A model generated the notes under the pieces. The model did not search any database and had not been told where the DNA came from. It saw nothing but the letters and a program-made list of their open reading frames with translations. Made by a program: the position numbers and the translations under genes. Shown piece after piece: positions 13,663 through 64,000 of a stretch of 64,000 bases of DNA. Origin of the DNA: Acidobacteriota bacterium (GTDB lineage Bacteria; Acidobacteriota; UBA6911; RPQK01; JAJDTT01); NCBI GenBank assembly GCA_965209055.1, contig OZ242374.1:6013183-6077182 (forward strand), in the 5' to 3' direction. Each line of letters starts with the position of its first letter. Position 1 is the first letter of the stretch.

Positions 13663-13750
13663 TGGAGGGGGGACTGTTAGTCCGGCGCTCTGCCCAACTG
13701 AGATACGGGATTTATCCTTTATTTTCAATAGTTTAGACCGATTCTCCCCT

Positions 13751-14839
13751 CTAATTGTTCCTCCTATTTCCTGCCCGTTGCCTGTTTGTTTCCGGTTGCG
13801 TTTGTGAGTCTTCGTTAGCCTGTGCCTCCCGAATGCTGGCCAGCGCGTGGGAACTGACGTACCCGGCGTAGCGCATCGTCGTGCTGATGGCCGAGTGCCC
13901 CATCAGCTTCTGCACCGTCCTCACGTCCACCCCCTGCATCAGCCAATGGCTGCACCGGAATCGTCTCAGGTCGTGAAATCCGACCTTCAACCCCACTCGC
14001 TCGGCGGCTCGACGTAGCGGCTTGTCCGGATTCACCCATCTCGTCCCTGTCCGGATGTTGACGAAGACGTAAGGGGTGTTCAGGTAGCGAACCAGCCGGA
14101 CCAGATATCCGGTGGCGTACTTCGACAGCGGAATCTCCCTCGGCTCGTCGTTCTTGGTGAATTCCACCCATAGCAGCCTCCGGGTTAGGTCCACCCGATT
14201 CCAGGTGAGCGACAACGCTTCGCCTTTCCGTATCCCCGTCTCGCCGATCACCGCAATCATGGCTTGCAGGTAAGGATTGTCCACCGCCTCGACCAGGTCG
14301 CGGAACTGTTGAACCGTCAAAGGCCGGAAGACCTTCTTGGGTTCTTTGAGTTTGGGGAACCTCACCAGCGGGTGCGTGTCCACTTCCCCGCACTCCAGCG
14401 CGTAGGAAAACAGCTTGCTGATGGCGGCAATGTCGCGGTTCACCGTGGCCGGTTGCACCTGCTTCTTCCTCTGGGCGACGTAGCGGTACAGGTCCTTGCG
14501 TTGGAACTCCTTCAGGGGAATGTTCCCCAGCATGGCGTTGAGACTCTTGAACGAGAGCGCATAGCGACGCCGGGAGCGCATGCGAGGTTTGCAGTACTCC
14601 TCGAAGAAACGCTCGTAGAAGCTCCGGACCGTCCAGATCTTGCGGTTCCCGCCGACAAGCTCCTCCTTGAGCTGCTTCCAGGTGCCATCCAGGATGCTCG
14701 ACTCGATTCGTGTTTGAAGCGCCTGTGCGCTCCGGTAGTTGGGGGCGTACATTCGAAGCCGACCGGATCCGTTCGGCCAGTACTTGCTGACGACGAAACG
14801 TCGTCTCCCCCGGCGATCCTTCACCTTGTAGATGCCCAT
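13751..14839 (-). CDS. int: Tyrosine recombinase/integrase (copy 1)
   Basis: Catalytic R (GIRKGE), K (TKN), HxxR (HDLR), H (LMGH), Y (TMRY); AAGGAGG RBS. Confidence 0.95.
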   Translation of the reverse strand: MGIYKVKDRRGRRRFVVSKYWPNGSGRLRMYAPNYRSAQALQTRIESSILDGTWKQLKEELVGGNRKIWTVRSFYERFFEEYCKPRMRSRRRYALSFKSLNAMLGNIPLKEFQRKDLYRYVAQRKKQVQPATVNRDIAAISKLFSYALECGEVDTHPLVRFPKLKEPKKVFRPLTVQQFRDLVEAVDNPYLQAMIAVIGETGIRKGEALSLTWNRVDLTRRLLWVEFTKNDEPREIPLSKYATGYLVRLVRYLNTPYVFVNIRTGTRWVNPDKPLRRAAERVGLKVGFHDLRRFRCSHWLMQGVDVRTVQKLMGHSAISTTMRYAGYVSSHALASIREAQANEDSQTQPETNRQRAGNRRNN

Positions 14840-15159
14840 ATGCATCTCCTCCTTTCTGGATCCGGGTTCTTCGCCGTGAGGAGAATCCTACCACGGCTCC
14901 AAGAGAATCAGCATAGGCGTTCAAGTCTTCCAAGGCGAAGACGCGGTGGCCGGCGGGGTCAATCTGGACCGTGGACCGGTTGCAGCCCGTGTGTTAGGGG
15001 TGACCTGTCCCTGGTAGCTTGAAATCCCTGGAACTTGGAAAATCCATCTGCCATCATGAGAGCCTAATGGGCTGTCACGGTGATGGAAACAAAGCAGTGA
15101 CTGCGGCCGCAATCCCATTGGATCTTCCATAGAAGGCGGCTTTTGGGTGTGGAGGAAAA

Positions 15160-15528
15160 ATGCGCCTGAATTGGATCAAATGTGTGGAAGACAAGTGGTG
15201 CCCGTTTCTTACAGTGAATCTTGATCATCCTCACTTTGACGGTCTCGGTGGCGTCTACGTCATCTGGCACGGAGGTAATGGCTGGCACGGAGGCAGCGAC
15301 CCGTGGACGGTTTACGTGGGGAGTGGACATATTTCCGCTCGTCTCGCGGAACATCGAACGAACCCAAACCTTCTCAAGTATTCCGACCGAGGGCTCTTTG
15401 TTACTTGGGCAATGGTCGCCCCGGAAAGTCAGAGGGGTGTAGAGGCGTATCTGGGTGATGAACTGGGCCCGCTGGAGTCCATTCGTCTTCCTGACGCTAC
15501 TCCTATTCCTGTCAATCTTCCGTGGTAG
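15160..15528 (+). CDS. Small GIY-YIG-like protein
   Basis: GVYVIW...VYVGSG.ISARLAEH pattern, later E in VEAYL; GAGGA RBS. Confidence 0.55.
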   Translation: MRLNWIKCVEDKWCPFLTVNLDHPHFDGLGGVYVIWHGGNGWHGGSDPWTVYVGSGHISARLAEHRTNPNLLKYSDRGLFVTWAMVAPESQRGVEAYLGDELGPLESIRLPDATPIPVNLPW

Positions 15529-15538
15529 ACCGTTTCGC

Positions 15539-15877
15539 ATGGGACCTGGACAAGACCCCAAGGTAGTTACTCACCCAGCTCCAACAATAGTAATCTACCA
15601 AGTCACCGATGAAACGCTCCAAAGAATTGAAGAAGGAGTCTCCCAAGCGGGACCTAGTTCAACACTTGCAGGAACGACCTTGACCATCTTCGTAGCTCTC
15701 TGCATCGCAATTGCCACCACGAGTCCTTCACCTTTTTGGCGAACACTTTTCATCATCGGCATATCTATTTCGGGCATCCTTTGCGTTGTGGGGTTTTCGC
15801 AATGGAGGCGTAGTCGCAAGACTGTTCATCAAGTCATTGAAAGAATCCGGGAACGAAAAGACGACCCCAACGCTTGA
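15539..15877 (+). CDS. Small two-transmembrane protein
   Basis: Two hydrophobic helices followed by a basic tail; follows the GIY-YIG-like gene closely. Confidence 0.55.
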   Translation: MGPGQDPKVVTHPAPTIVIYQVTDETLQRIEEGVSQAGPSSTLAGTTLTIFVALCIAIATTSPSPFWRTLFIIGISISGILCVVGFSQWRRSRKTVHQVIERIRERKDDPNA

Positions 15878-16398: not shown

Positions 16399-17241
16399 AT
16401 GCCGCATACTGTTTGTGACCTCCGCTCTTGGGAGGAGTTAGAGGAGGAACTGAAAAAACTCCAGGAGCACTCGCTTGAACAGCGCCACTCAGCACCCCTG
16501 ACGTTTCTGTATCGTGGGCAGGAAAACTCTTGCTGGCCCGTAAAGACAACGCTTGAACGATGGGCGGAGGGGCGAGAGGTTTCGTTCCGGCGATACTATG
16601 AGTTCATTTACCGAGTAAAGCCAGAGCTTGAGAGCTTCACCGAAGAGCGTTGGGATATCCCGGACCCCCAAGAGGTAGAACGCCTGACAAAACGTCGCGA
16701 GCCTTTTTCTTGCGATACGGCGAAAGCCTTCAAAACTTGGGGGCTAGTTGGGAGCTACATGGTGCACTTGCGCCACCATGGGTTTCCCTCACCTTTCCTC
16801 GATTGGACTCGTTCACCCTATGTTGCGTCCTTTTTTGCTTTCCGGCAACCGATCAGGGATGCGAAAAAGGTGTCTCTTATCGTTTATCGAGAAATGCGAA
16901 ATCCATCCGAGCATCCCAAGGTCTACTCTAGTGACTGGCCGGAAATATACATCCTGCCAAAGCTATACTCACCAACGCACCGAAGGCACTTCCTTCAGCA
17001 GGCGGAGTACACATTTTGCGTACAAAATAAGAAGAGCAAATGGCACTTTGGGCCACATGAGAGTGCACTCGGGCGGGGCGATTCCAATGTAGACGTCATT
17101 TGGAAGTTCAATCTCCCCGTAACCGAACGCCTGAAGGTTTTGAAGTTACTTGACAGGTCTAACATGAATGCGTTCTCGCTGTTTCAGTCTGAGGAAAGCC
17201 TAATGGAGACTGTGGCGTTTCGAGAACTGGATTGGCTGTAG
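16399..17241 (+). CDS. FRG domain-containing protein
   Basis: FLYRGQ and RHHGFPSPFLDWTRSPYVASFFA motifs; lower GC than host. Confidence 0.85.
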   Translation: MPHTVCDLRSWEELEEELKKLQEHSLEQRHSAPLTFLYRGQENSCWPVKTTLERWAEGREVSFRRYYEFIYRVKPELESFTEERWDIPDPQEVERLTKRREPFSCDTAKAFKTWGLVGSYMVHLRHHGFPSPFLDWTRSPYVASFFAFRQPIRDAKKVSLIVYREMRNPSEHPKVYSSDWPEIYILPKLYSPTHRRHFLQQAEYTFCVQNKKSKWHFGPHESALGRGDSNVDVIWKFNLPVTERLKVLKLLDRSNMNAFSLFQSEESLMETVAFRELDWL

Positions 17242-17527
17242 TTTCCATGGAAGCGTGGCGCTCACGGGGCCAGGGACAAGGATCAGCATCGAGCCACACG
17301 GAAACACGGGTCAGAAGAATTTCACCCGGGATGTTGGCAAGTCCCCATTCGGTTCTGCCAAGTCGACACAGTGCCCTATTGGCACAAGTGCGAGTACTTG
17401 AGACACCGACCAGTTTGGGTGGACACGGACTGCCAAGACAATCCTCCAACAGAATGGCGACGCTTAGAGCTAAGTCGTACGAGGACTGGATTTTGGCATG
17501 CACGGTCGGATGGTGAAAGGCAATGAG

Positions 17528-17700
17528 ATCGGGGAAAGCGGATTTGTGAATCACCGGGACCGCCATTTGTGAATCCACCCTGCGTGTCCCATTCACACTC
17601 CCGGATCGGCACGAGACCCCCTTTGCGCCCTGCCGAAACGAGTCCTCGTCAGCCTTTATGCCGGCCAAGTGGCAGTCGCCGTCGAGATCGAGCCGAAGGG
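17528..17700 (-). repeat. Second, partial copy of the element backbone (TGTGAAT repeat region) inside E1
   Basis: Aligns by eye with 27995-28150, 41460-41590, 53120-53270 and 61820-61960. Confidence 0.75.
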
Positions 17701-17981
17701 CGATCCGCGAGTTGAAGGGTTGCTCCGGCGTCTTCATGTCCCGAACGGTGAAGACGGATCCACCGGCAGGTCAACTGGTAGGAAGAATTCGACCTTCCAA
17801 GGCATTCCAAGGAAGCCCAGAAGCCGTCGCGCCTGCTGACACCGCCGCCTGCGGCGTGTCGAATCCCCCCGGCGGGATTCCCGTGAAGTCTGGTAGAGGG
17901 TTCGGGAGGATCGGAGATTGAGGGCGGCGGAGTTGCGCACGGACCCCGTCGGCTCACCATCCGGGCAGCCCCGACGAGGGC

Positions 17982-18773
17982 TTACGGGACCGTCTGGGAC
18001 CTTCCCCATCCCTCGTCAGCAAGACGGGTGCAGTTTAGCTCCTCGACACGGAGACGCCACTGGGGCATCACCCGGTCCAAGATCTCCCGGAATCGGTCGT
18101 TGTGCGTGGGTTCGACGAGGTGGGCCATCTCGTGCACGACGACGTACTCGATGCAGGAAAGCGGCTTCTTGGCCAGTTCGGAGTTGAGCCAGATGCGGCG
18201 GGCCGGAGCGTTGCAGGTTCCCCAGCGTGTCTTCATGCGCCGGATGCGCCAGTCGGCCACCCGCACCCCGATCCTCGGCTCCCACTTGGCGGTCCACGCC
18301 GGGATACGCTCGCGGAGCCGAGCCCGGTACCATGCGTACAGCATCGCCTCGCGGGAATCGCGACCGGTAGGAGGACGGACCCGCATTTCGATCCAGGCGT
18401 TGCCCCTCACCCGCACGCCGGTCGGGCCGGGCGATTCGATCACGTCCAGCCGGTAGCGCCGGCCCTCGAAGTAGTGACTCTCGCCGGACACGAACTCGCG
18501 GCGGGACTGGCGCTCCTGCTTCAGGAACCCGTCGCGTTTTCGCCGAATCCAGGCCAGCCGCGATATCACCGCCAACCGCACGGCCTCGTCGTCGAGGCGC
18601 AACGGGGCGGCAACGCGCACCCGTCCCTCCGGGGGGTAGACGCCCAAGTGCAGGTGCTTGATGTCCTTGCGGACGACCTCGACGGAGATGCCACCGACCT
18701 CAATGTGCGCGGATAGAACCGATCTCCGGGAACTGGCGGGGCGGGAGGTCGGCCCGTGAAAATCAGTATTCAT
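17982..18773 (-). CDS. M48/YgjP-like (DUF45) metallopeptidase-domain protein associated with type I R-M
   Basis: MKTRWGTCN and YVVVHEMAHL (HExxH); directly downstream of hsdR. Confidence 0.85.
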   Translation of the reverse strand: MNTDFHGPTSRPASSRRSVLSAHIEVGGISVEVVRKDIKHLHLGVYPPEGRVRVAAPLRLDDEAVRLAVISRLAWIRRKRDGFLKQERQSRREFVSGESHYFEGRRYRLDVIESPGPTGVRVRGNAWIEMRVRPPTGRDSREAMLYAWYRARLRERIPAWTAKWEPRIGVRVADWRIRRMKTRWGTCNAPARRIWLNSELAKKPLSCIEYVVVHEMAHLVEPTHNDRFREILDRVMPQWRLRVEELNCTRLADEGWGRSQTVP

Positions 18774-21700
18774 TCCGTGCCTTCACGATGTCGAAGGTCG
18801 CGGCCGCGTTGGCCCCGTAGGCACCAAGCGCCTCGTGGATCGCCTTCCGGATGAGCGTCTCCTTGATCGGGTGGCCGCGCCACCCGTCCATCCGAGCCTT
18901 CCGAACCGCCTGATCGACGGCCAGCGCGACGGACTCGCGTGTGCCGGTCCCAGGTTCAGTTATCGTCATCGGCGGCTCTTCCGGGAGGTTGTCGTAGATC
19001 GCGCGCAAGGCTGCGGTGTCGATGTTCGCTGGACGCGACCCGCCGTCCTCGCCGCACTTCACCTTCGCGGCCAGCGCGCTCACCCGCTTCAGGTAGTCTC
19101 CGTACGCGATCACCTCCTCGCGCCGTTGCCGGATCAACTCGTCGAGCAGCCTGGACATCCGTTCGTAGTACTTCGGGTTGACGGACATCTCATCCACGAT
19201 CAGGCGCCGGACGTTGTTCTCGATGGTTTCCGCGACGGCGCGGCGGTTCCCCCGGATCCCGTCGGGCAGCGAGTCTACGGCGTCCCCGGCGCGTTCGACA
19301 AGGAGATCGACGAGCGTCATGTCGTCGAAGGTGGAAAGAACCCCGGAGTCGTCGGCCCGGATGTAGGCGTCCAGAAGATGCCGCATCGCGGGCTCGAACA
19401 TTTTCAGGTCCACGAAGTCGCCGCTGTTCAGTTTGACCTCTTGACGGACCTTCTCGTAGTGGTCCACTTCGTCCCGCGTGTCCCTCCGTTGGGCCTCCGT
19501 GTAGCCCGCCGCGATCATCTCGTTGGCCAGGTCCGCGTAGCTGCGGAGGAACGCGGCGACGAGCCGGTAGAGGGTGAGGCGCTTGCGTTCGTTCGCGGCC
19601 AGTTGGCGAGCCGCCTCCTCACCGTCGCCCGTGCCGTCCTGGCAGAAGTAGCGCAGGTACGCTGCGGTATCGCGGGGCGGGTCGACCCCTTCGCAGAGCG
19701 CCCGAACCGCTTCGCGGGCCTCTTCCAGCCGCTCCCGCCCCCGTTCCAGGCGATCCGTCAACAGCTCTTCTACATCCTCGCGGCTGTAGCCCTCGAAGGC
19801 TTCGCCCGTGTAGTCCTGGATCGCGCCCTCCAGCGAGCGGAAGAGGTCCCTGTAGTCGATGATGTGGCCGTACTCCTTGTCCTCGCCATCGAGGCGGTTG
19901 ACCCGGCAGATCGCCTGAAACAGAGCATGGTCCTGCATCTTCTTGTCGATGTAGAGGTACGTCGCGGGCGGGGCGTCGAACCCGGTCAGCAGCTTGTCCA
20001 CGACGATCATGAGCTTCATTTGCGCTGGGTCATTCACGAACCGTCGCTTGACCTCCTGCTCGAACTCATCGGCCTTGTGCATGGCCGTGTCCTCGGACTC
20101 TCCGAAGTGGTCTGCGAGCATGCGCCGGTAGACCTCGTACTTGAGCAGTTTCTCGGCCGGACCCTCCCCGGGGTCCTCGCCCGCGATGTCGCTGGCAGCC
20201 GGCTGGTATGACGTGATGATCGCGCACCTGCCCTTCAGGTCGGTCGCACTGAAGCGCTGAAAGAAGCGGCAAGCTGCGTAGATGCTGTCGGACACGAGCA
20301 TGGCGTTGCCCCGCCCGCTTTTCAGCCGGTCGCGCGTTTCCATGTCCATGAGGATGTCGTCCACGATCTTGTCGATCCGTTCGCGCGAACTCGTGACCTT
20401 CCGCATCGTGCCCCAGCGCTGGCGGAGCTGCGCCTTGGCAAGGTCGCTGAGCCCCTGGGTCTTGAGGTCGAACCACTGGTCGATCTTCGCCTCGGAGGTC
20501 AGGTGCTGGTCGATGTCGCGCGCCTCGTAACGCAGGTCGAGTACCACCTTGTCGCGGATCGCCTCGTCGTACTTGTAGGTGTGGATATACGGGCCGAAGG
20601 TCTCGATGCTGCGCGGCTTGTCGGACTTGAGCAGCGGCGTTCCCGTGAAGCCGATCAGGGTGGCCTCGGGCAGGAGTTTCTTCATCGCGCCGTGGAGTTT
20701 ACCGGACTGTGTGCGGTGGCATTCGTCCACGAAGACATAGATGTCTCCGGCGGGGCGAAAGCCGCCGGAGATGTGGGCGCGAAGGTCGCTCACATAGCGG
20801 TCGATGTCGCCCTCTTCCGAACGGCCGAACTTGTGGACGAGCGAACAGATCAGCGACTTGGCGGGATCGCGAAGGGCCTCGGCAAGGTCCGCACCGCTCT
20901 TCGTGCGGTGGATGTCCTCGTCCACGCCAAGAAAGACCTTCTCGATCTGCTCGTCGAGTTCCTTGCGGTCGGTGATGACGAGCACGCGGCCATCGGTAAC
21001 CTTCTCGCGGATCCACTTCGCGAGCCACACCATCGTGAGGCTCTTCCCGCTGCCCTGGGTGTGCCAGATGATCCCCCCATCCCGTCGCTTCACATGGGAT
21101 TGCGCTGCCTTCACGCCGAAATACTGGTTGTGACGGCAGATCTTCTTGGTGCCCGCGTCAAACACCACGAAGTCGTGGACCAGTTCGAGGAGACGGCCCG
21201 GTGCACAGAGGTCGGCGAGTTCTTGGAGAAGGGACGAAGCGGCGTTCGACGCGGGTGAAGACGCGGCAGCCTCCTTCCAGCGCAGCCAGTACTTTTCCGG
21301 TGTGCCGACCACGCCGTAGCGGAGCCCCTGCGTGTCGTTGCCCGCCATCACCAACTGCACGGTGGTAAAGAAATGCGGGATGAAGTGCTTCTTCTGGTTG
21401 GCCAGGTTCTGGCGGATCCCCTCGGCCACCGACACGGTCGAGCGCTTGAGTTCGATGACCCCCAGCGCGATGCCGTTCACGTAGAGGACGAGATCGGGCC
21501 GCTTGGTGTTCCGGCCGCTGACCGTGACCTCTTCGGCGATGGCGAAGTCGTTGGCGAACGGATTGCTCCAGTCGATCAGATCGACGGTAACTGCCTTCCT
21601 GCCGACTCCGGGACTCACCTTCACGCCGTACCGGAGGAGGCCGTAAACGTTCCGGTTAGCTTCGTAGAGCGTGCGGCTTCCGCCCAGTGCGGCGGCTTGC

Positions 21701-21900
21701 TCGAGCTTCGCAATGGCCTTCGCGATCAGACTCGCGGGATGGCCGCCGCGCTTGAGAAAACGGGTGAGGATCCGGGACTCCACGTTGCAGTTGCCGTCCC
21801 GGTCCTGCCAGTCGCCAAGGTAACGGTAGCCGAGACTGTCCCGGAAGAGCGCGATGACCCGCCGTTGCGTTTTGATCTCCTTTTCGCCGACGGGGGTCAT
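18763..21900 (-). CDS. hsdR: Type I restriction endonuclease subunit R
   Basis: RPDLVLYVNG..IELK nuclease motif, HTQGSGKS Walker A, DECH, FTGTP, LLTGFDAP, QAICRVNR; start ATG at 21900. Confidence 0.95.
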   Translation of the reverse strand: MTPVGEKEIKTQRRVIALFRDSLGYRYLGDWQDRDGNCNVESRILTRFLKRGGHPASLIAKAIAKLEQAAALGGSRTLYEANRNVYGLLRYGVKVSPGVGRKAVTVDLIDWSNPFANDFAIAEEVTVSGRNTKRPDLVLYVNGIALGVIELKRSTVSVAEGIRQNLANQKKHFIPHFFTTVQLVMAGNDTQGLRYGVVGTPEKYWLRWKEAAASSPASNAASSLLQELADLCAPGRLLELVHDFVVFDAGTKKICRHNQYFGVKAAQSHVKRRDGGIIWHTQGSGKSLTMVWLAKWIREKVTDGRVLVITDRKELDEQIEKVFLGVDEDIHRTKSGADLAEALRDPAKSLICSLVHKFGRSEEGDIDRYVSDLRAHISGGFRPAGDIYVFVDECHRTQSGKLHGAMKKLLPEATLIGFTGTPLLKSDKPRSIETFGPYIHTYKYDEAIRDKVVLDLRYEARDIDQHLTSEAKIDQWFDLKTQGLSDLAKAQLRQRWGTMRKVTSSRERIDKIVDDILMDMETRDRLKSGRGNAMLVSDSIYAACRFFQRFSATDLKGRCAIITSYQPAASDIAGEDPGEGPAEKLLKYEVYRRMLADHFGESEDTAMHKADEFEQEVKRRFVNDPAQMKLMIVVDKLLTGFDAPPATYLYIDKKMQDHALFQAICRVNRLDGEDKEYGHIIDYRDLFRSLEGAIQDYTGEAFEGYSREDVEELLTDRLERGRERLEEAREAVRALCEGVDPPRDTAAYLRYFCQDGTGDGEEAARQLAANERKRLTLYRLVAAFLRSYADLANEMIAAGYTEAQRRDTRDEVDHYEKVRQEVKLNSGDFVDLKMFEPAMRHLLDAYIRADDSGVLSTFDDMTLVDLLVERAGDAVDSLPDGIRGNRRAVAETIENNVRRLIVDEMSVNPKYYERMSRLLDELIRQRREEVIAYGDYLKRVSALAAKVKCGEDGGSRPANIDTAALRAIYDNLPEEPPMTITEPGTGTRESVALAVDQAVRKARMDGWRGHPIKETLIRKAIHEALGAYGANAAATFDIVKARNEY

Positions 21901-23474
21901 GGCTTGGTTGATTCGGATTCGAGGATTTCCCAGCGCCCCTTCTTGGTCGGTCCCACATGACGGATGCGACCCGCCTTCCGGAGCTTGTCGAGATGGTATT
22001 TGACGCCTTCCGGCGTGATCCCGATTCGGGAGGCCAGGGCGACGCGCGTCAATGTCGGATCCCTTCGCAGGAGAGCGAGAATGCGGTCGCGGGTAGGCAT
22101 CGAATCTGGCTTGCGGCCTTCTTGGGCAGCTTCGCCGGTTTCCTGGGTAGTCTCGGCGAGTTGCTGGGTAGTCTCGCGGCCTTCTTGGGTAGTCCCTCGC
22201 TTGGCGCCTTGGGTTTCTTGGGTGGCCGCGCGAACGGAGCCAAGCTGCTTGCCATTGCCGCCCGCCCGCAAGATTCGGGTGATAAACCCCGCGCCCGCCT
22301 CGAACTCGGGCTCCGGCAGGCCCGCCTCTGCGCAACGCCGGATCATGTCCACCGTCCCGGTTCCCATCTTCTCGATGTAGCGGAGCAGGTACATTGACTC
22401 CGCGATCAGCGGATTGGCGGGCAGCGACTGGTGCGCCACGCGCAGTTTCTCCACCGTAAGCGGCGGCGGCAAGCGGCCGGAGTTCATGACCTCCAGCCGG
22501 TCGGCGAAGAGCATTACCTGAACACTGCTGTTGTCGGTGTAGTCCCGGTGCGCCACCGCGTTGACGATGGCCTCCGTCACGACCTCCTTCGGGATCTCGT
22601 AGGCCACAGGGGCTTGGACCGTCTCCGCCCTCGTCCCAACGGTCAGAGCGATCTTGCTCAACACGAAGTCCACCGCTTGATCCACAAGCTCGAAGACCGT
22701 GCCCTTGTACACCTGGTGGGAAGGGATCGGCTTGGCGACCTCGGTTCCGTGGAAGTGCGCGCACTTGACCTCGGAAGAGATCAGGAAGCGTTGCGGGGTG
22801 CTGCCGAACAGCAGCACGGCGGCGTTCGTGAGCCGTCCCCGGTTCAGCAGGTTCAGGTGCCTGAGCAGGTCCGCTGGCGGAGTCCCCTCCGGCAGTGGGA
22901 ACTGCCGCGATCTTCGCGCCTCGCGGATGAAGCGGTACATGCCCTCGACGTTCAGGTCGTCAAGTGTGGCTCCCGAGCAGCCGGACGCGTCGAACGGCCC
23001 GAAGCGCAACATTTGCCTCGCTTCCAAGTACTGGACGAGAGCGGCGTACAGGCCTGCCACCAACTCGGCCCGGGTAGCGAAACGCCTTCTCACCAGACCA
23101 GCTTGCGCCCTGCCGATCAGTGCCCACATCTTCGGGTGCCGCTCGGCTCCCTCGGAGCCCTTCAGAAAGATCAGCCGGTGCTTCTCCAGATCGGTGGCCC
23201 GGTCGAACTCGCGCTCGGTGGGCGAGATTCCGTTCCCGTCCTCGAACCCGTAGTCTGTACCGAATAGGCCAACGTAGATCTCGCACCGCTCGACTTCGCT
23301 CAGATAGACCTCGTCGGGTCTCCGGTCAGAAGCCGAGACGTCCTCGAATAGGAAGACTTCAAAGAAACGCCGCATCATCGGATCGCCGCGCAGGTAATCA
23401 CGCAAATGCTCCCGCTCCCGTGCGAACTCGTACTGGACACTGCTGATGAAGATCCGGATCGGCGTCATTGGCAC
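21897..23474 (-). CDS. DUF4062 + RecG-C/HATPase-like + wHTH protein
   Basis: RIFISSVQ.EF..ER N-terminus, EAIVNAVAHRDY, IEKMGTG, C-terminal HTH ending GPTKKGRWEI. Confidence 0.8.
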   Translation of the reverse strand: MPMTPIRIFISSVQYEFAREREHLRDYLRGDPMMRRFFEVFLFEDVSASDRRPDEVYLSEVERCEIYVGLFGTDYGFEDGNGISPTEREFDRATDLEKHRLIFLKGSEGAERHPKMWALIGRAQAGLVRRRFATRAELVAGLYAALVQYLEARQMLRFGPFDASGCSGATLDDLNVEGMYRFIREARRSRQFPLPEGTPPADLLRHLNLLNRGRLTNAAVLLFGSTPQRFLISSEVKCAHFHGTEVAKPIPSHQVYKGTVFELVDQAVDFVLSKIALTVGTRAETVQAPVAYEIPKEVVTEAIVNAVAHRDYTDNSSVQVMLFADRLEVMNSGRLPPPLTVEKLRVAHQSLPANPLIAESMYLLRYIEKMGTGTVDMIRRCAEAGLPEPEFEAGAGFITRILRAGGNGKQLGSVRAATQETQGAKRGTTQEGRETTQQLAETTQETGEAAQEGRKPDSMPTRDRILALLRRDPTLTRVALASRIGITPEGVKYHLDKLRKAGRIRHVGPTKKGRWEILESESTKP

Positions 23475-24763
23475 GGTCCGTTTTCGTAGACAGCATCCTG
23501 GATCGGAAGTCGAATCGAACCGGTAAGAAGCTGCTGCATCATGCCCTGCTTGAGGGCGCGCGTCTTGTCGCGACGCCGGTCTAGCGCGGCGATCTCCGCG
23601 TCCATGTCTGAGAGGGCGGCGGCGATAGCCCGCTGCTCTTGGGGGGGCGGGAATCGAAGCTCCGCAGAGGCGATATGGGCGCGGTTGGTGGCGTACACTT
23701 TCGTGCCGGCCGCGAGCCTCCGGAGATGATCCCGGAATCGGGGGAAAAACTGCAAGTACGCCTTGAAGCCGTCGGCGAGCACCGCCTTATTGAACCTCAC
23801 CGCGATGGTGTGCAGTCCGGATACGAGTTGGTGACCCTCGCTCCCCATGATCTCGATGGACTTTCCCACACCTCCAACGTCCTCGGAAGCGTCAACGAAC
23901 ACGAGGTCTCCGTCGCTCAACCGATCAAGCCTTCTAGCATAATCCTTCGCCAAGGCCGGCAAAGCGGTGGCCGTCGGGTCAAGGTACACACGGGCGGATG
24001 TATGGATGTCTCCATAATGGAGGTACTTCACTCCACCGCCGACTTCGCCGTTAGGCGCGAGGTAAGAGCGTGGGAAGCTACCATGCCGAAGGAATCGGAG
24101 ATGGTTCCCCAGCCGCCTCGTCTCCCACTCACCTCGGAACCCCGGCAGCCGGGTCCTGCCGGTCAGAAGTTGCTGCATCGCCGCCTGCTTGATTGCCCGC
24201 TTCTTGGCGATCAGCGCCTCCAGCGACCCGATCAGGGCGTCTACGTCCATGAGGACGGCGGCGATGGCCCGTTGCTCGTGGAGGGGTGGGAGGGGGATAA
24301 CATGCTGATGAACGTCATTTCGATTCAGCGTTGGAACCCCGGAACCGGCGAGAAACCGAGCAACGCGGATATGGGTGTACAGGTAATAGATGAATCGCGG
24401 ATCGTTGCGACGATAGGATACAACCCAGAGAGCCGTGTTGTGTGGCCAATAGTCCTCCGCCACGAAGTGTACCTTGCCGATTGTTCCAGATCGTCCCGTC
24501 ACCACACCTGGGCCCTTCACCATAGCGCGGTTGTGGCGTCGCAAAATTCCGTTGGAATAGACAACGGGGTAACGTCCTGATCGGACTTGCGATGTAGGGA
24601 GATCGAATCCTCGCTGTAAGGGAGCAACATCACGGAGCGCCTTCGAGGCCCAGCCCGCCGGAAAGACGACCGCCTCGGAGCTTTGGCACCGTACGGCTTC
24701 GACCGGCGCATCCGCCGCACGGTTCGAGGCAATGGCTATGCTGCGCCCCCGTCCTTCACTCAC
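23465..24763 (-). CDS. hsdS: Type I R-M specificity subunit S
   Basis: Two TRDs with repeated PP..EQRAIAA.L.D.D and K.A.KQ..MQQLLTG conserved regions. Confidence 0.9.
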   Translation of the reverse strand: MSEGRGRSIAIASNRAADAPVEAVRCQSSEAVVFPAGWASKALRDVAPLQRGFDLPTSQVRSGRYPVVYSNGILRRHNRAMVKGPGVVTGRSGTIGKVHFVAEDYWPHNTALWVVSYRRNDPRFIYYLYTHIRVARFLAGSGVPTLNRNDVHQHVIPLPPLHEQRAIAAVLMDVDALIGSLEALIAKKRAIKQAAMQQLLTGRTRLPGFRGEWETRRLGNHLRFLRHGSFPRSYLAPNGEVGGGVKYLHYGDIHTSARVYLDPTATALPALAKDYARRLDRLSDGDLVFVDASEDVGGVGKSIEIMGSEGHQLVSGLHTIAVRFNKAVLADGFKAYLQFFPRFRDHLRRLAAGTKVYATNRAHIASAELRFPPPQEQRAIAAALSDMDAEIAALDRRRDKTRALKQGMMQQLLTGSIRLPIQDAVYENGPCQ

Positions 24764-24853
24764 TGCCGACCCACCTACACACGGATTCTGCAGACGCTGT
24801 CTGCGGAATCTCGCCGAACGGTGCGTCTCGACGCTCGAACCGGAGCGGACGGC

Positions 24854-27300: not shown

Positions 27301-27824
27301 GGTCGGCTCAACTTCCTGGCGCGGGCGGGCGCCGTGCGGGCACTGGACCACAACCTTCGAGCCGGCACAGGGATCGGAGGAAACGAGTCGCCCCGCCCCG
27401 GTCGGAGAACGGCGCCCCGCCGGGCCGGATCAGACGCTGGGACGTGTCTCCCCCGAGGACGTCGCGTAACAGGTCGGCCACTGCCCGACGGGAATTCGGA
27501 ACCTCGGTCTTGGCCATGCCTCAATTTAGCATGTCGGGCCGGGCCAGTCCGGTGCGGCTTCCGTGTCGGGATCGGAGCAGGGCGTCAGACGCCGGCTGCG
27601 GCGATGACAAGCTGCACCCGCTTCTTCGTGGGCACGAACAGCACTGCCAGCAGTCCCAGCCCGATCAGTGCGTATTGAACGCGGACCGCCGAAGCGAGCA
27701 CCGCCAGGCAGGCAGACCACCACGCCGTCCAGGCATCTTGCGCGGACTGATGCGCCATCAAGGCGAGCACTGCCAGCAGCAGTGCCCAGGAATCTTCGCA
27801 GGAGCCTTCCCGCCAGGGATATTT

Positions 27825-27925
27825 TGGACGGGAGCGACCCCACCAGGGAGTGTTGCGCAGATGTGAATTGCGCAACACCCCCGCGCCCGCACCGGGCAGC
27901 AAAAAGGGGGGGTCGCTCCCGTCCA
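27825..27925 (-). other. Conserved branched hairpin module (E1 copy)
   Basis: Outer stem TGGACGGGAGCGACCC/GGGTCGCTCCCGTCCA enclosing GTGTTGCGCA/TGCGCAACAC and GCCCG/CGGGC hairpins. Confidence 0.8.
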
Positions 27926-28058
27926 CCTCCATTTTCCCCGTGCGGCCACCCGGTGGCCGGAAATGGGGCCGCAACTGACTGAAAGGAAACAAGCTCGGGG
28001 AGAGTGCATTTGTGAATCACCGGGACCGCTTTTTGTGAATCCACCCCCCTTGTCCCAT

Positions 28059-28400
28059 TCACATCCCGGATCGGGCGCGAGACCCTCTTTTCGCACTGCC
28101 GAAACAGCCCTCAATCAGCCTTTGCGACTGCCAAGTGCGTTCACCGCCAATCACGACCTGGAAGGAGTAACTTTCCGCCGTTGTTTGCCGCTCGACCGAC
28201 TGCTTAAGTGCGGCCGTAACCCGGCCGTAGGAGTTGAGCAGGCCTTGGTCGGTCGAGTGCCCCGGATCGACACGGACGAAGACGGTCCGGTCCGCATCGA
28301 CGGCAAGCGGCGGCTTGAGCGCGAAGTCACGTAGGGTCTTCCCCACCGCCCCCGGCACACGCGCCGAGGAAGCCGTTGCCAGTGGACAGCGAGTGTGTCA
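28059..28400 (-). pseudogene. Remnant of conserved backbone gene (GAVGKT.R.FALK.P.AVD.DRTVFVRVDP)
   Basis: Homologous decayed reading frames in E2 (41207-41525), E3 (53187-53345) and E4 (61545-61898). Confidence 0.6.
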
Positions 28401-28819
28401 GGGTTCGAGCGTTGCCCTGCGGTGCTGGCCAAAGATCGACACGGCCTTAAGAGTTTCAAGAAGATTCGGCATGGCCGGAAGCTAACACCGAAAGCTGACA
28501 ATCGGGTCTTGTTCCCGGAGGGCCAGACGACGACGGCCCGCGCGGGTTTCTTCCCTTGCCCCCCCTTCGGTCCCTACGGTTCAGCCCGGATCGGGCAGGG
28601 GTCCCCATGGGGTCATGCGGCGTTGACAAGACAGGTCATGAGGAGGGCCAGAAGGATCAGCGCACTTGCGAGCTTGAGAGCGGTGGACCAATCGTTGAAG
28701 GGCCGACGGGGGCAATAGGTGCAGACCGTTTCATTTGGGGATTATATACGAAAGTTCCAGATTCCCCTTGACACACTTGGAACTTTCCTGTAATATCTCC
28801 TTGTAAGTAAGGAGATCGT

Positions 28820-31823: not shown

Positions 31824-31855
31824 GCCGGAATCTGGAACTTTCGTATATAATCCCC

Positions 31856-32772: not shown

Positions 32773-32785
32773 GAGGGCGTTCCCC

Positions 32786-48924: not shown

Positions 48925-49089
48925 GGTCAGTCGTTTACCACTTTCTGGGCGAGGAGGGTGGACCTCAATCCATCATCGAGAAAGGAGAAGACGCCATGCA
49001 ATTCTTCATATGAGTTCTGATGCTGTTGGTCCGCGATAACACTGGAGTCCCGCACAGAACATCAGGGTTCCTGTCGATGAGTTTTTCTG

Positions 49090-61274: not shown

Positions 61275-61544
61275 GAGGAGGGGGGACTGTTAGTCCCAAC
61301 TGTCCCATAGTCAAAGACTACCGAACGTTAACGTTTTCAATTATTTACCGGGTTCTTCGCCGAATCGGTAAAGTGGTTGACTCTCCATGTTTGACATGCT
61401 GAACAGGCAACAAACAGGCAGCCGAATCGGTTCCTGAAAGCCGACGCGCCCCTTATCCCCCTTCCGTTGCCTGGCTCAGAGACCTTATCAGATAGGCTTT
61501 GCCGACCGTTTGGCTCCACCGGAGGACTCTGCCTGAGGCCGAAG

Positions 61545-61898
61545 ATGTCCGGCTTCAAGCGGCAGGGCATTCCCAAGGATCAGCATCCCCAGCAAGTGTA
61601 CTACGGCGCGGTGGGGAAGACCCGCCGCGACTTGGCGTTCAAACTGCCGATTGCCGTCAAGGCGGACCGGACCGTCTTCGTCCGTGTCGATCCGGAGCAC
61701 TCGACCGACCAGGGCCGGCTCAACTCCTAAGGCAGGGTGACGGCCGCCCTGAAGCGGGCGGTCGAGTTGCAACCAGCGGCAGAAGTTCGCTCCTTCCAGG
61801 TCGGGATTGACGGTGAACGCACTTGGCCGTCGCAAGGGCCAATGGAGGCTCGTTTCGGCAGTGCGTCAAGAGGGTCTCGCGCCCGATCCGGGATGTGA
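61545..61898 (+). pseudogene. Backbone gene remnant with internal TAA
   Basis: TAA at 61728-61730 replaces the TAC (Tyr) in the E1 copy; the frame continues to SRARSGM* at 61898. Confidence 0.65.
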
Positions 61899-62033
61899 AT
61901 GGGACAAAGGGGGTGGATTCACAAAAAGAGGTCCCGGTGACTCACAAATGCACTCTCCCGGATCTTGTTTCCTTTCAGTCAGTTGCGGCCCTATTTCCGG
62001 CCACCGGGTGGCCGCACGGGGAAAGTGGAGGTG

Positions 62034-62130
62034 GACGGGAGCGACCCCCCCTTTTTGCCGCCCAGTGCGGGCGCGGGGGTGTTGCGCAATTCACATTTGC
62101 GCAGCACCCCCTGGGGGGGTCGCTCCCGTC
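62034..62130 (+). other. Conserved branched hairpin module (E4 copy)
   Basis: Same stems as in E1-E3. Confidence 0.8.
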
Positions 62131-62858
62131 GAAATTATCCCTAGCGGGAAGGCAAGAGATGACACCCTGACGGGCAAGATGGGATGCAGGAGCATCCCTG
62201 ATATCCACAACAATAAGGAACGGCTGGAGGCCCTCAGGAAGCAGGCGGTGGAGAAGCTCCGCGGCCGCCGCGCTTACCGCTGTCCGCGCTGTGGCTGTCA
62301 GAGCTACGAGAAAGATTTTGACCGGACAAGAAGAAGAGACACCTACCAACTGAAAAGCCCTTCCAGTGAGCGCCGAGGCCCTGTGTTCGAGCCTCCCCAC
62401 CGTGTGGAAAATCAGAGATTTCCCACAGGGTGCGTCGTTTTGCTGACCCCACAATCAGCGCCGCCCACGAAAGAAAGCCGGCTCCCGGCTGGAAGCCGTC
62501 CGAGACCGCGCGAGGGACCCGTTCTTATGGGACGCGACAAACAGGAGCGCGTGAAAAAGAGTCCGGCATGGTGAGCCTGACTCTTTGAGGGCGCAACTGG
62601 GGGGTCTGGGGGGATAGTTCCCCCCGGTCCGTCATCCGTTCCGGCTTGCCGGCCTCGCGGACCAGGACGAAATCGGCCCGCCGTTGGAGGACCTCGACCA
62701 CGGTCGCGGTCCAGGCCTCTCCGGCCCGCGTTGTGATCTGGATGGAGCCGCCGCCGCGTCCTCGCTCTGAAGGACCTGAACGCCGACGTCGATTCTCTGG
62801 CGCCGTGGTAGGATTCGCCCCATGGCGAAGAACCCGGATCCGGAAAGGAGGAGATGCT

Positions 62859-63947
62859 ATGGGCATCTACAAGGTGAAGGATCGCCGGGGGAGAAGACGC
62901 TATGTCGTCAGCAAGTACTGGCCGCACGGATCCGGTCGGCTTCGAATGTACGCCCCCAACTACCGGAGCGCACAGGCGCTTCAAACACGAATCGAGTCCA
63001 GCATCCTGGACGGCACATGGAAGCAGCTCAAGGAGGAACTCGCCGGCGGGAACCGCACCGTCTGGACGGTCCGGAGCTTCTACGAGCGTTTCTTCGAGGA
63101 GTACTGCAAACCTCGCATGCGCTCCCGGCGTCGCTATGCGCTCTCGTTCAAGAGCCTCAACGCCATGCTGGGAAACATTCCCCTGAAGGAGTTCCGACGC
63201 AAGGACCTGTACCGCTATGTCGCCAAAAGGAAGAAGCAAGTGCAGCCGGCCACGGTGAACCGGGACATTGCCGCCATCAGCAAGCTGTTTTCCTACGCGC
63301 TTGAGTGCGGAGAAGTGGACACGCACCCGCTGGTGAGATTCCCCAAACTCAAAGAACCCAAGAAGGTCTTCCGGCCCTTGACGGTTCAACAGTTCCGCGA
63401 CCTGGTCGAGGCGATGGACAACCCCTGCCTGCAAGCCATGGTTGCGGTGATCGGCGAGACGGGGATACGGAAAGGCGAAGCGTTGTCGCTCACCTGGAAA
63501 CGGGTGGACCTATCCCGGAGTCTGCTATGGGTGGAGTTCACCAAGAACGACGAGCCGAGGGAGATTCCGCTCTCGAAGTATGCTGCTGGATACCTGACCG
63601 GGCTGGTTCGCTACCTGAACACGCCATACGTTTTCGTCAACAGCCGGACTGGCACGAGATGGGTGAATCCGGACAAGCCGTTGCGCCGGGCCGCCGAGCG
63701 GGTGGGGTTGAAGGTCGGATTTCACGACCTGAGACGATTCCGGTGCAGCCATTGGCTGATGCAGGGGGTGGACGTGAGAACGGTGCAGAAGCTGATGGGT
63801 CACTCGGCGATCAGCACGACCATGCGCTACGCCGGGTACGTCAGTTCCCATGCGCTTGCCAGCATACGGGAGGCACAGGCTACCGAAGACTCACAAATGC
63901 GCCCGGCAACAAACAGGCAACAGGCAGGAAATAGGGGGAATGACTAG
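62859..63947 (+). CDS. int: Tyrosine recombinase/integrase (copy 4)
   Basis: R-K-HxxR-H-Y residues intact; AAGGAGG RBS. Confidence 0.95.
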   Translation: MGIYKVKDRRGRRRYVVSKYWPHGSGRLRMYAPNYRSAQALQTRIESSILDGTWKQLKEELAGGNRTVWTVRSFYERFFEEYCKPRMRSRRRYALSFKSLNAMLGNIPLKEFRRKDLYRYVAKRKKQVQPATVNRDIAAISKLFSYALECGEVDTHPLVRFPKLKEPKKVFRPLTVQQFRDLVEAMDNPCLQAMVAVIGETGIRKGEALSLTWKRVDLSRSLLWVEFTKNDEPREIPLSKYAAGYLTGLVRYLNTPYVFVNSRTGTRWVNPDKPLRRAAERVGLKVGFHDLRRFRCSHWLMQGVDVRTVQKLMGHSAISTTMRYAGYVSSHALASIREAQATEDSQMRPATNRQQAGNRGND

Positions 63948-64000
63948 AGGAGAGCAGTGGCGTAACCCCTTGAAAATAAAAGCAAGCGCCCCAAGCTCAG

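Follow-up and report, generated by a model that had tools for sequence, protein, structure and literature searches.

Four integrase-bearing elements and their junctions

The window, that is, the whole stretch of DNA analysed, comprises 64,000 nt of contig OZ242374.1 (GCA_965209055.1), positions 6,013,183 to 6,077,182, from an Acidobacteriota bacterium (JAJDTT01). The host genome (6.08 Mb) belongs to an uncultured member of the Acidobacteriota and is a metagenome-type assembly with an estimated contamination of 7.4%, in which polishing may inflate the apparent likeness among repeat copies. Four elements were found in the window, three of 2.8, 9.3 and 20.4 kb and one truncated by the contig end, and their anatomy and cargo are shown directly (Table 1). 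A search of both strands located 8 copies of GGACTGTTAGTCC in the window and none in any of 100 shuffles. The palindrome GGACT(GTT/AAC)AGTCC is present at the visible element junctions, where one host flank reads GGAGGGG and the opposite one CCC(C/A)(G/T)TCTT. Coding-like ORFs end 8, 15 and 9 nt before the core at E1, E2 and E4, and at E3 an ORF (44903-46072) stops 17 nt ahead of the core at 46090. The empty core at 9565-9577 is the eighth copy in the window and lies outside the range covered by the initial annotation.

Table 1. Positions of the elements, their parts and associated host features in the window
Feature	Position	Strand	Remark
Empty attB-type REP hairpin	9565-9577	-	GGAG flank, core and C-run; between divergent ORFs, no adjoining element arms
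E1	13671-34114	-	20,444 bp; class 1B; attP centre AAC
E1 integrase-proximal junction core	13671-13683	.	Palindrome match
E1 tRNA-Arg 5'-half-like arm	13678-13708	-	D-arm and anticodon stem; core at anticodon-loop position
E1 tyrosine integrase	13751-14845	-	94% identity to 46170 copy
E1 cargo region	16399-33565	.	Pfam
E1 cargo: FRG-domain protein	16399-17241		Pfam
E1 cargo: YgjP-like metallopeptidase	17982-18773		Pfam
E1 cargo: type I R-M, HsdR	18763-22764		Pfam
E1 cargo: DUF4062/HATPase_c_4/HTH protein	21897-23474		Pfam
E1 cargo: type I R-M, HsdS	23465-24763		Pfam
E1 cargo: type I R-M, HsdM	25255-27351		Pfam
E1 cargo: IS1595 transposase	28820-29794		Pfam
E1 cargo: D12 methylase	29840-30769		Pfam
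E1 cargo: NotI-like endonuclease	30766-31617		Pfam
E1 cargo: M74-like peptidase	32786-33565		Pfam
E1 integrase-distal junction core	34102-34114	.	Palindrome match
E2	40946-43725	+	2,780 bp; minimal form; class 1A; cores at 40946, 43713
Candidate arm-type integrase-binding motif	41068-41082	+	15 nt; motif search, no binding data
E2 small backbone ORF	41207-41434	+	N-terminal ~50 aa kept in class 1A copies
Non-coding backbone module	41486-41785	.	~300 nt; very stable long hairpin; conserved
E2 integrase ORF	42558-43748	+	Reference match (46170 copy, 94% identity) ends 43634
Host segment B	43726-46089	.	Bracketed by the integrase-proximal ends of E2 and E3, in inverted orientation
E3	46090-55393	-	9,304 bp; class 1A; cores at 46090, 55381
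E3 tyrosine integrase	46170-47258	-	Reference protein P0001, 362 aa
E3 cargo region	49090-55153	.	Type ISP-like protein and peptidase
E3 cargo: Type ISP-like methylase/specificity protein	49090-52581		1,163 aa
E3 cargo: trypsin-like peptidase	54185-55153		
E4	61284-64000	+	Class 1A; truncated by contig end; core at 61284
E4 tyrosine integrase	62859-63947	+	97.5% identity to 46170 copy

The initial annotation, made from sequence alone, had described most of this arrangement, and its local claims held: four near-identical intact integrases in 64 kb (four genes without internal stops, 94, 94, 100 and 97.5% identical to the reference), the palindrome at all seven visible junctions (starts 13671, 34102, 40946, 43713, 46090, 55381 and 61284), host-side flanks conserved between unrelated loci, a junction within about 20 nt of a host stop codon in each element, and sizes of 2.8 to 20.4 kb with cargo that varies by element (E1 to E3 measured, E4 cut). 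It had also predicted a right core of E4 at about 64014-64028; the contig stops 14 nt short, the twin copy of E4 would place the core at 64015-64027, and the first bases of the contig do not continue E4.

Two backbone features accompany the integrase. The small ORF of E2 can be called a recombination directionality factor only as a guess, since it has no family match, and its role remains inferred. The non-coding module is present in all four window elements and has 66 matching places genome-wide, and an Rfam search of it returned no family. In E2 the usual integrase stop is lost, and the ORF reads across the junction core into host DNA.

Genome-wide copies, the integrase and its tRNA-like arm

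A tblastn search revealed 26 full-length integrases in the genome, with 88-100% identity, and 25 of them pair with a conserved distal arm lying 1.5-24 kb from the integrase gene start. The resulting elements measure about 2.7-25 kb and are bounded by the core as an att-type direct repeat. These copy numbers are shown. One might object that the copies are inert, arising from old segmental duplication, homologous recombination among relics or repeat misassembly. In favour of this view, the contig ends within E4, short-read contigs break at element ends, and rearrangements occur near E2 and E3. Against it, host flanks differ in 25/25 elements, none of the 26 full-length integrase matches has an internal stop, the junctions are base-precise and obey a single orientation rule, independent contigs spanning the left junction of E2 show no difference, and flanks are syntenic with relatives. 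We regard this explanation as all but excluded. Present-day mobility is inferred, not observed, from copies that are 100% identical but differently flanked: E2 has a twin over 2,779 nt at genome 4495133-4497912, and E4 one over 2,717 nt at 3004456-3007200. No excised circle or polymorphic empty site was seen, in a comparison limited to assembled contigs, which break at element ends.

The reference integrase P0001 matched PF00589 (E=4.3e-27, 95 bits, cut-off 27.1), thus meeting the feature of the tyrosine recombinase superfamily. Among 43 homologues the catalytic residues R204, H289, R292, H315 and Y324 show no variation, with K229 at least 90% conserved. In an AF2 model (pLDDT 88), residues 3-32 form a three-stranded sheet followed by a helix at 35-51, and the model aligns with the full-length lambda Int entries 1z1b, 1z1g and 5j0n over 340-349 columns; integron IntI4 is also among its structural matches. 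In addition, a 15-nt motif has 8 matches in the window and none in shuffles (besides the copy in Table 1, at 13779, 33978, 43604, 46198, 55257, 61406 and 63905), one per arm in all four elements and in direct orientation within each element. The enzyme is therefore likely to be a heterobivalent, lambda-type integrase with an arm-binding domain; the fold is established from the model, while the role of the motif is inferred, without binding data. Two other identities were rejected. Against the integron integrase models the protein scored 60 bits with a cut-off of 265 (TIGR02249) and 28 with a cut-off of 435 (NF011946), and there is no cassette array. A REP-targeting insertion sequence with a DDE/DEDD transposase and terminal inverted repeats was excluded, as the only conserved protein family found in the backbone is the tyrosine integrase.

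The integrase-side arm carries a relic of a tRNA. An nhmmer profile built from the 5' halves of this genome's tRNAs matched the E1 arm at E=0.018, with Arg as the closest tRNA. In the genome-wide search with this profile, 15/15 non-tRNA matches at E<1 sit at integrase-proximal ends; of ten arms compared, nine are closest to Arg(TCT) and one to Arg(TCG). In other genomes, homologues with 35-72% identity adjoin genuine tRNA genes, for Arg or Leu, at 17 of 20 loci; members of the 72% clade have the integrase upstream of an intact tRNA-Arg and co-directional with it, and the spacer is homologous to the proximal arm of these elements. Rfam and ARAGORN did not call the integrase-side arm a tRNA, and ARAGORN found no tRNA gene over the window. 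We take the presence of a tRNA-Arg 5'-half relic as shown, and therefore consider it likely that this integrase lineage descends from tRNA-Arg-targeting integrases. That the present elements themselves target tRNA genes was considered and rejected: host flanks are of REP type, not tRNA, in 24 complete elements (E4 being cut), and no tRNA was found at the 25 elements.

Hairpin targets in the genome and in relatives

The whole genome contains 44 palindromes, 32 at junctions and 12 empty (one entry of this tally was re-labelled by eye), and the existence of both occupied and empty sites is thus demonstrated. Related hairpins occur in 80, 91, 54 and 52 copies, in BIME-like arrays, and the target is probably a member of this large superfamily of REP/BIME-like hairpins. 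An array of three tandem hairpins adjoins a 252-aa, IS200-like ORF with Y1_Tnp (29.7 bits, cut-off 23); neither true RAYT status nor service to the GGACT...AGTCC hairpin has been demonstrated for it. In the 54-copy family with the same TTTCCAA loop, no occupied copy was observed, so loop identity alone does not define a target.

The closest relative, G001 of the same genus, carries 19 palindromes and G003 carries 3; none of these 22 has adjoining element arms, and an integrase search in G001 gave no match at E<=1e-40. The distribution in G001 indicates that the palindrome is a host REP-like hairpin. In G001, 13 nt separate the two flanks of E1, which enclose a variant hairpin; at this site in relatives the outer stem is the same and 3/9 inner bases differ. 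The relatives likewise retain the outer stem at the E3-distal site, with a different loop. Because of these two variant inner hairpins, an exact core before insertion is not shown for every site. G001 has an exact, unoccupied core at the site adjoining window position 46089, and the two flanks of E2 are adjacent in none of five relatives.

These variants raise an alternative, in which the element makes its own target: it would enter imperfect hairpins of GC-rich terminator or REP type, exchange would rewrite the inner stem and loop to the core of the element, and the "empty" cores would be excision footprints. The altered inner sequences within unchanged outer stems at the E1 and E3-distal sites favour this scenario, as do the restriction of the exact 13-mer to G000, G001 and G003 among the six genomes examined and the frequent location of empty cores a few kb from occupied ones. 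However, G001 has its 19 exact cores without an integrase match at the above threshold. Second, empty copies of the class 2 hairpin number 80, vs 5 class-2-type elements (classes 2 and 2b), and the arrays of this hairpin adjoin the Y1-transposase gene. Third, a 7-bp exchange is unable to rewrite the 13-15 bp in common. Fourth, at two loci (L027 and L029) same-position hairpins differ between species even without an element. We therefore consider a self-made target unlikely, and the preferred reading remains a pre-existing host hairpin.

The wider reading of the initial annotation, a REP-hairpin attB with IS-like spread and a platform for defence genes, is supported and has been extended by the tRNA-Arg relic, the several target specificities and the inverse orientation of E1, none of which it contained. 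The use of a many-copy REP/terminator-like hairpin as attB is supported by the copies in the genome and in relatives and by the hairpin superfamily. Had the palindrome occurred only at element ends, with no empty orthologous sites, this reading would have been refuted; the 12 empty copies and the empty core in G001 show otherwise. Spread without disrupting genes is plausible only, an inference from the intergenic position of the sites and the hairpin kept at each junction. The claim that this is not a described family holds within the literature searched, where no tyrosine-integrase family with a REP-hairpin target was found.

Crossover, orientation and relation to known systems

In class 3 elements and element 3142209, attP and attB have only 7 bp in common, at the loop. 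These overlap limits are shown, and we infer from them that the crossover probably falls within a segment at the hairpin loop that may measure as little as 7 bp. The central triplet retains the host polarity in all 16 complete class-1 elements, of which 9 GTT elements point one way and 7 AAC elements the opposite way; the inverted attP centre of E1 accounts for its inverse orientation with respect to the host hairpin. In all likelihood the asymmetric loop centre sets the orientation of insertion (16/16 complete elements with the GGACT...AGTCC palindrome). Sister integrases use different hairpin loops, revealing several target specificities, with at least 9 among integrases mostly 87% or more identical. 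GTT and AAC elements are intermixed within one clade, and one element with a class-2 attP occupies a hairpin that matches it in the 7-nt loop alone, the stems being different throughout.

The most probable interpretation is that these are integrative elements with a lambda-type integrase whose attB is not a unique gene but a REP-like hairpin recurring downstream of genes. An excised circle, itself inferred, would bear attP, with a core reproducing the hairpin's loop and inner stem. Int would join attP to any matching hairpin, with strand exchange inside as little as 7 bp at the loop, whose asymmetric centre would dictate orientation, and a complete small hairpin would be retained at each junction. 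With tens of matching hairpins available in the host, the element could accumulate like an insertion sequence. Retargeting among hairpin families would take a new attP core but little alteration of the protein. The variable middle carries mostly restriction-modification and other anti-phage genes.

A bolder reading, which we put forward tentatively and with the balance tilted against it, is that target choice resides mainly in DNA, not in the protein: Int would accept nearly any G-run/C-run stem and need only a 7-bp loop match, and a rare mismatched insertion would copy a new or inverted loop into attP, yielding retargeting to a different REP family or flipped orientation. This would account for the number of loop specificities, the mixing of GTT and AAC elements and the class-2 attP in a foreign-stem hairpin.

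A further alternative keeps the same mobile unit but supposes that a folded single-stranded or cruciform hairpin is recombined, as for integron attC and CTX phage. Every target is a perfect hairpin, the class-2 attP element shares only a loop with its site, and IntI4 is among the structural matches, all of which favour this route. Nevertheless, the lambda-like arm-binding domain and arm motifs, the low integron integrase score (60 bits vs 265), the full core at both junctions, as duplex exchange predicts, and the use of ordinary tRNA genes by homologues all speak against it, leaving it very improbable beside duplex integration at the hairpin.

Lambda-type tyrosine integrases are textbook single-site enzymes, and Williams (2002) is reported to have set out sublocation classes for tRNA-gene integration. 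The present elements resemble lambda/P4/HP1-type tRNA integrases in having a heterobivalent tyrosine integrase at one end, a part-tRNA attP and an overlap at the anticodon-loop position between inverted stems. They differ in their dispersed REP-like hairpin with tens of sites, their 26 integrase copies and several specificities, and in a relic that is the 5' half, whereas the usual relic is the 3' part of the tRNA. Tycheposons of Prochlorococcus (10.1101/2020.12.28.424599) use 7 tRNA/tmRNA genes, with 1-2 elements per genome in islands at fixed loci; they too are compact, with a tyrosine recombinase, defence or niche cargo and an integrase type that determines the site, but here about 25 elements per genome lie at REP hairpins dispersed along the chromosome.

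REP-targeting insertion sequences (IS1397, ISKpn1, IS621, ISPpu9/10; Tobes and Pareja 2006, PMC1525189) belong to the IS3, IS110, IS4, IS256 and IS5 families and have DDE/DEDD transposases and no cargo; the word "tyrosine" is absent from that paper. They share with our elements the use of repeated extragenic palindromes as landing sites, and since such sites are many-copy and safe, both reach a high copy number per genome; here, in contrast, the enzyme is a tyrosine integrase that uses att sites, and the cargo reaches about 22 kb. Integrons likewise combine a tyrosine recombinase, imperfect palindromes, sequence-tolerant recognition and interchangeable modules, but our elements have no attI or cassette array and each encodes its integrase. 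IMEX, with XerCD at dif, are similar in Xer-like chemistry and a short palindromic host site; they have no recombinase of their own and one site per chromosome, whereas here Int is present in every element and sites are many.

The family unites the REP "safe haven" strategy, known for transposase insertion sequences (PMC1525189), with precise, presumably reversible, cargo-competent integration. The attP would keep an evolutionary trail from the tRNA-Arg anticodon loop to look-alike hairpins. For recombinase mechanism, the elements offer a natural series of close integrases with differing overlaps and stems, in which homology and protein contact in attB recognition can be set against each other. 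An integrase that could be re-addressed through edits to 7-15 bp of attP would make a useful tool, and the bolder reading, if true, would make this a naturally re-addressable large-cargo integrase.

Defence cargo, mainly restriction-modification, is present in the window and in 16 other elements, which supports the view of the family as a distributed platform for defence genes. For genome biology, the elements may be a concrete vehicle for the heavy, scattered defence load in symbiont-type genomes and a source of inversions and rearrangements. Host segment B, between E2 and E3, is inverted in orientation relative to all five same-genus genomes.

Elements, junctions and copies in the genome

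Eight copies of the 13-mer GGACTGTTAGTCC were found in the window when both strands were counted, and none was present in 100 shuffles. The initial annotation had placed the palindrome GGACT(GTT/AAC)AGTCC (the core) at all seven visible element junctions, and this claim held, all seven being copies of the 13-mer. The eighth copy is flanked on each side by host-type sequence and adjoins no element. The four integrase genes of elements E1-E4 lack internal stops and are mutually 94-100% identical. The integrase-proximal arm ends ...CAGAGCACG beside the core, and the conserved distal arm begins CAACTGTCCCACAGTCAAAGAC... after the opposite core. The contig terminates 14 nt short of the last core expected for E4, and its first bases do not continue this element; therefore, the assembly is not closed there. 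The right core previously predicted for E4 would lie beyond the contig end, and the identical twin of E4 puts it at 64015-64027.

In E2 and its identical twin, the integrase ORF has lost its usual stop and reads via the junction core into host DNA, which gives both proteins an altered C-terminal tail. We also observed two neighbouring minus-strand paralogues with 68-74% DNA identity and an offset of ~3.58 kb, which were detected as repeat families D7, D8, D10 and D13.

Features of the window and their coordinates
Feature	Window coordinates	Content
E1	13671-34114	Cargo: type I R-M system; type II methylase and NotI-like endonuclease; DUF4062/HATPase_c_4 protein; YgjP-like peptidase; FRG protein; IS1595 transposase
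E1 integrase	13751-14845(-)	
E2	40946-43725	
E2 integrase	42558-43634(+)	
E2 integrase ORF extended into host DNA	42558-43748	
E3	46090-55393	Cargo: Type ISP-like methylase/specificity protein; trypsin-like peptidase
E3 integrase (P0001)	46170-47258(-)	362 aa
E4	61284 to contig end	
E4 integrase	62859-63947(+)	
Eighth 13-mer copy	9565-9577	
Second hairpin	about 9520-9560	
Paralogous pair	3718-5880; 7321-9399	
Segment A	34115-40945	
Segment B	43726-46089	2.36 kb, two host genes
Tenth backbone ORF	47857-48312	
Conserved non-coding module	41486-41785; also 17514-17671, 27804-28352, 52792-53370, 61605-62153	~300 nt

The genome (G000) is a single contig of 6,077,182 bp, of which the window is the final 64 kb; this metagenome-type assembly has an estimated contamination of 7.4%, and the relatives retrieved with the integrase carry the title Acidobacteriota MAGs. 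A tblastn search of the genome revealed 26 full-length integrases at 88-100% identity; in addition, 6 loci hold integrase fragments, and 4 homologues are distant (27-29%). Scanning for the distal arm gave 29 matches, comprising 27 arms, one decayed arm and one unrelated sequence. A distal arm lies 1.5-24 kb from the gene start of 25 integrases, which leaves one integrase without a partner arm and two orphan arms, and the element sizes range from ~2.7 to 25 kb. The decayed arm, at genome position 794922, has a degenerate core (GGACGAACAGTCC) and no integrase near it, and is probably what remains of an old insertion.

A copy of E2 at genome positions 4495133-4497912 shows 100% identity to it across 2,779 nt, and a copy of E4 at 3004456-3007200 shows 100% identity to it across 2,717 nt; the host flanks differ within both pairs. 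The mobility of the elements is inferred and was not observed. The sequence data used were assembled contigs from the 4 of 23 runs (13 studies) with the largest shares (X19-X22), all from one sample. Independent contigs stop at 40952-40966 and restart at 43712-43718, around E2. None bridges an empty E2 site or shows a circle junction, and assembled contigs are uninformative on excision. Most of the other runs, with small shares, are labelled sponge, coral-reef or marine metagenome, which is no more than a hint of a possible habitat.

The target hairpin and the site of exchange

The genome has 44 palindromes, of which junctions account for 32 and empty copies for 12; the script gave 13 empty copies, and the copy at 2106493 was re-labelled by eye as a variant distal arm. 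A single polarity is common to all of the empty copies and all of the junction flanks, in which, relative to the GTT strand, the 5' side carries GGAG plus a G-run and the 3' side a C-run followed by T-rich sequence. The closest same-genus genome, G001 (92% identity in flanking DNA), contains 19 palindromes and no integrase match at E<=1e-40. There are 3 palindromes in G003 and none in G002, G004 or G005. No element arms adjoin any of the 22 palindromes of G001 and G003, and the flanks of most of them are the same.

A census of perfect hairpins revealed a large superfamily built as GGAG(C/G)G, stem, TTTCC-type loop, stem and CGAACTCC, among whose members tandem arrays are frequent. In addition, an ORF of 252 aa with an IS200-like Y1 transposase domain (locus L077, 1006-1764(-)) lies beside three tandem hairpins (1858-1995). 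The ORF and hairpins correspond to about 1142805-1143795 in the genome, and the hairpins, 46 nt apart, run straight into the proximal end of element 1144940. This ORF is a RAYT candidate, and a link between a RAYT and the class-1 hairpin has not been shown. The superfamily, its arrays and the Y1 transposase ORF together make REP-like a fair name for these hairpins. REP targeting has been described in the IS3, IS110, IS4, IS256 and IS5 families (Tobes and Pareja, PMC1525189), and the word 'tyrosine' is absent from the text of that paper. Tycheposons (preprint 10.1101/2020.12.28.424599) are cargo elements with a tyrosine recombinase that use 7 tRNA/tmRNA genes and occur at 1-2 per genome. In the literature searched, which was mainly open-access and excluded supplements, no tyrosine integrase with REP targets was found, and none of the 120 listed matches in a protein search was named beyond 'integrase'.

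On the GGAG side of the class-1 sites, a coding-like ORF end lies at most 60 nt away in 15 of 29 cases, and in 8 of these 15 it lies exactly 6 nt before the core, such that TAG abuts the repeat. We also noted a second hairpin, GCGGGGG-TTAACAA-CCCCCGC, directly after many empty class-1 hairpins, for example, at genome positions 706682, 781240, 3256111, 3713536 and 3903837 and once in the window. When reverse-complemented, its TTAACAA loop closely resembles the anticodon loop of tRNA-Asn. The two hairpins might form a composite BIME-like unit.

The same sites were located in relatives. First, at the E1 site of G001 (L025), the left-flank DNA ends at 2329790 and the right-flank DNA starts at 2329804, and the hairpin there has the same outer stem and flanks, with 3 of 9 inner bases different. 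Second, the site beside window position 46089 is an exact empty core in G001 (L028); this is the only site at which an exact core is shown to precede insertion. Third, the site at the far end of E3 has the same GGGGGGAC/GTCCCCCC stem in relatives (L026, L032, L033) but a TTTCCT loop. Fourth, the left-end sites of E2 and E4 in G001 (L027, L029) are other members of the hairpin superfamily. The presence of hairpins at these orthologous positions shows that insertion occurred where a hairpin already stood, and from one species to the next the hairpins turn over. When the 35-nt flanks of the genome's elements were compared with the empty sites of G001 and G003, there was one good one-sided match, 27/35 (element 4662907). 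Four further flank matches, scoring 19-22, were discounted, being located in repeated sequence.

Three main core classes were distinguished in the genome. The attP of the element and the attB of the host hairpin have 15 bp in common in class 1, 11 bp (GATTTCCAATC) in class 2, whose hairpin has 80 copies, and only TTTCCTA in class 3. Element 3142209 has a class-2 attP in a class-3-type hairpin, with only TTTCCAA in common. Since class 3 and element 3142209 share 7 bp only, exchange is placed within 7 bp at the loop; 7 bp is the usual overlap size of tyrosine recombinases. The class-1 core is symmetric save for its central triplet. In the 9 elements with a GTT attP, the distal arm is on the GGAG side, and in the 7 with an AAC attP, including E1, it is on the opposite side, so that host triplet polarity is kept in all 16 complete class-1 elements, as an asymmetric overlap predicts.

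In the same-genus genomes, further cores occur beside integrases mostly 87-92% identical to P0001, the E3 integrase, with the loops CTTTCCTG, TTTCTAG, CTTCCAG, CTTTTAG and CTTTCAG; the L010 integrase (core CTTTTAG) shows 75-78% identity. An integrase tree was built from 35 sequences, namely 25 of the 26 from the genome, 9 from relatives and one 72% outgroup, leaving out L008, L011-L014 and the copy of E4. The tree contains three clades whose agreement with core class is only loose. GTT elements fall among AAC elements, including two starred sister pairs; the element that has a class-2 attP in the odd hairpin groups as sister to the ordinary class-2 elements, and CTTCCAG as sister to TTTCTAG. 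This loose match means that core changes are frequent compared with changes in the protein. In addition, elements are absent from a 54-copy hairpin family despite its matching loop, and target rules beyond the loop must therefore exist.

The integrase, its arms and a likeness to tRNA

P0001 matches PF00589 at E=4e-27. The best-scoring named models for it are Xer-like, with scores far under their cut-offs, and it scores 60 bits against the integron integrase model (cut-off 265). The residues R204, H289, R292, H315 and Y324 are invariant across 43 homologues. The AlphaFold model (mean pLDDT 88.3) shows three N-terminal strands and a helix, followed by core-binding and catalytic domains, and full-length lambda integrase structures align with 340-349 of the 362 residues. 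Conservation of the arms extends over ~145 nt distally and ~100 nt proximally. The two arms have a 15-nt motif in common. Each arm in the window contains one copy, 8 in total, and the two copies within an element are direct repeats; shuffles contained none. The motif may be an arm-type site, an inference made without binding data.

A profile of the 5' halves of the genome's own 38 canonical tRNAs was searched against the whole genome and gave 49 matches at E<1, of which 34 are tRNA genes. The remaining 15 are each found immediately downstream of an integrase gene or a fragment of one and cover profile positions 5-34, with a best E-value of 2e-4, 0.018 for E1 and about 0.5 for class 1A. Among 10 representative arms, 9 match Arg(TCT) best and one matches Arg(TCG) best, and in the tRNA register, the 7-bp overlap falls at the would-be anticodon loop. 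The D-stem is broken in several arm copies without compensating changes, and so we take the arm to be a relic now serving as DNA. ARAGORN called no tRNA gene in the window, and Rfam gave no match over the whole window at E<=1 and no tRNA match for two stretches cut at the core; thus, the tRNA likeness rests on the custom profile search and alignments.

In a survey of 20 homologous loci from 11 other genomes (35-72% integrase identity), no more than about 150 nt separates the integrase stop from a tRNA-Arg or tRNA-Leu gene at 17, and in most of these, the integrase gene converges on the tRNA 3' end. At the three 72% loci, an intact tRNA-Arg lies downstream of the integrase and points in the same direction, and the spacer is homologous to the proximal arm of the genome's elements. 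In the search for the far end of these elements, neither a second tRNA fragment nor the distal-arm motif was found within 20 kb upstream at any of the three loci. As a separate observation, ARAGORN called six tRNA-Leu(TAA) genes in the genome. For three of them (477237, 1991443, 2524782), the flanks are nearly identical both upstream and downstream, which suggests that this tRNA is carried on another repeated unit.

Rearrangements, backbone and cargo

Segment B is inverted relative to all five same-genus genomes, in each of which its window-43726 end is joined to segment C at the latter's window-55394 end. In our genome, it is flanked by the proximal ends of E2 and E3 in inverted orientation, an arrangement suggesting that recombination between the two elements inverted it. 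Segments A and B are 0.55 Mb apart in G001 and 1.8 Mb apart in G004, and the host DNA to the left and right of E2 is adjacent in none of the five relatives; therefore, E2 marks a larger rearrangement breakpoint. The inverted B and the distant A thus show that the elements mark rearrangement breakpoints.

Nine of 10 small backbone ORFs had no Pfam match at E<=1, and the tenth had a weak match under the cut-off (E=0.026). The conserved non-coding module forms a long hairpin (-88 kcal/mol, z -7.5) with changes on both sides at several pairs. Its 66 matches in the genome outnumber the integrases, and some fall outside integrase elements. No Rfam family was identified for it (best score 23 bits vs the 53-bit cut-off). 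Any roles proposed for the arm motif, the small ORF at 41207-41434 and this module are only guesses.

For 16 other elements, 107 ORFs of at least 150 aa, picked by a GC3 rule and some perhaps spurious, were scanned. There were 17 integrase-family matches and 6 DDE transposases; ResIII, N6_N4 methylases, GmrSD, HSDR_N and Eco57I-type proteins had 3 matches each; N6_Mtase, EcoEI_R_C, Mrr, Schlafen AlbA_2 and NACHT-associated endonuclease-like proteins had 2 each; and Cas1 had one. The Cas1 match was absent from a separately scanned set of 10 ORFs, and no tandem repeat was found in L067. PADLOC reported type II and III methylases, HEC-05, mads and PDC candidates, with 3 members each. The L067 locus (element 3374134-3394736) also contains, at 5080-9909, three adjacent tyrosine-recombinase genes encoding 331, 317 and 254 aa and a further 455-aa integrase with an Arm-DNA-bind_3 domain, nested beside a type I R-M system. 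These nested recombinases look like other mobile elements carried within the element.
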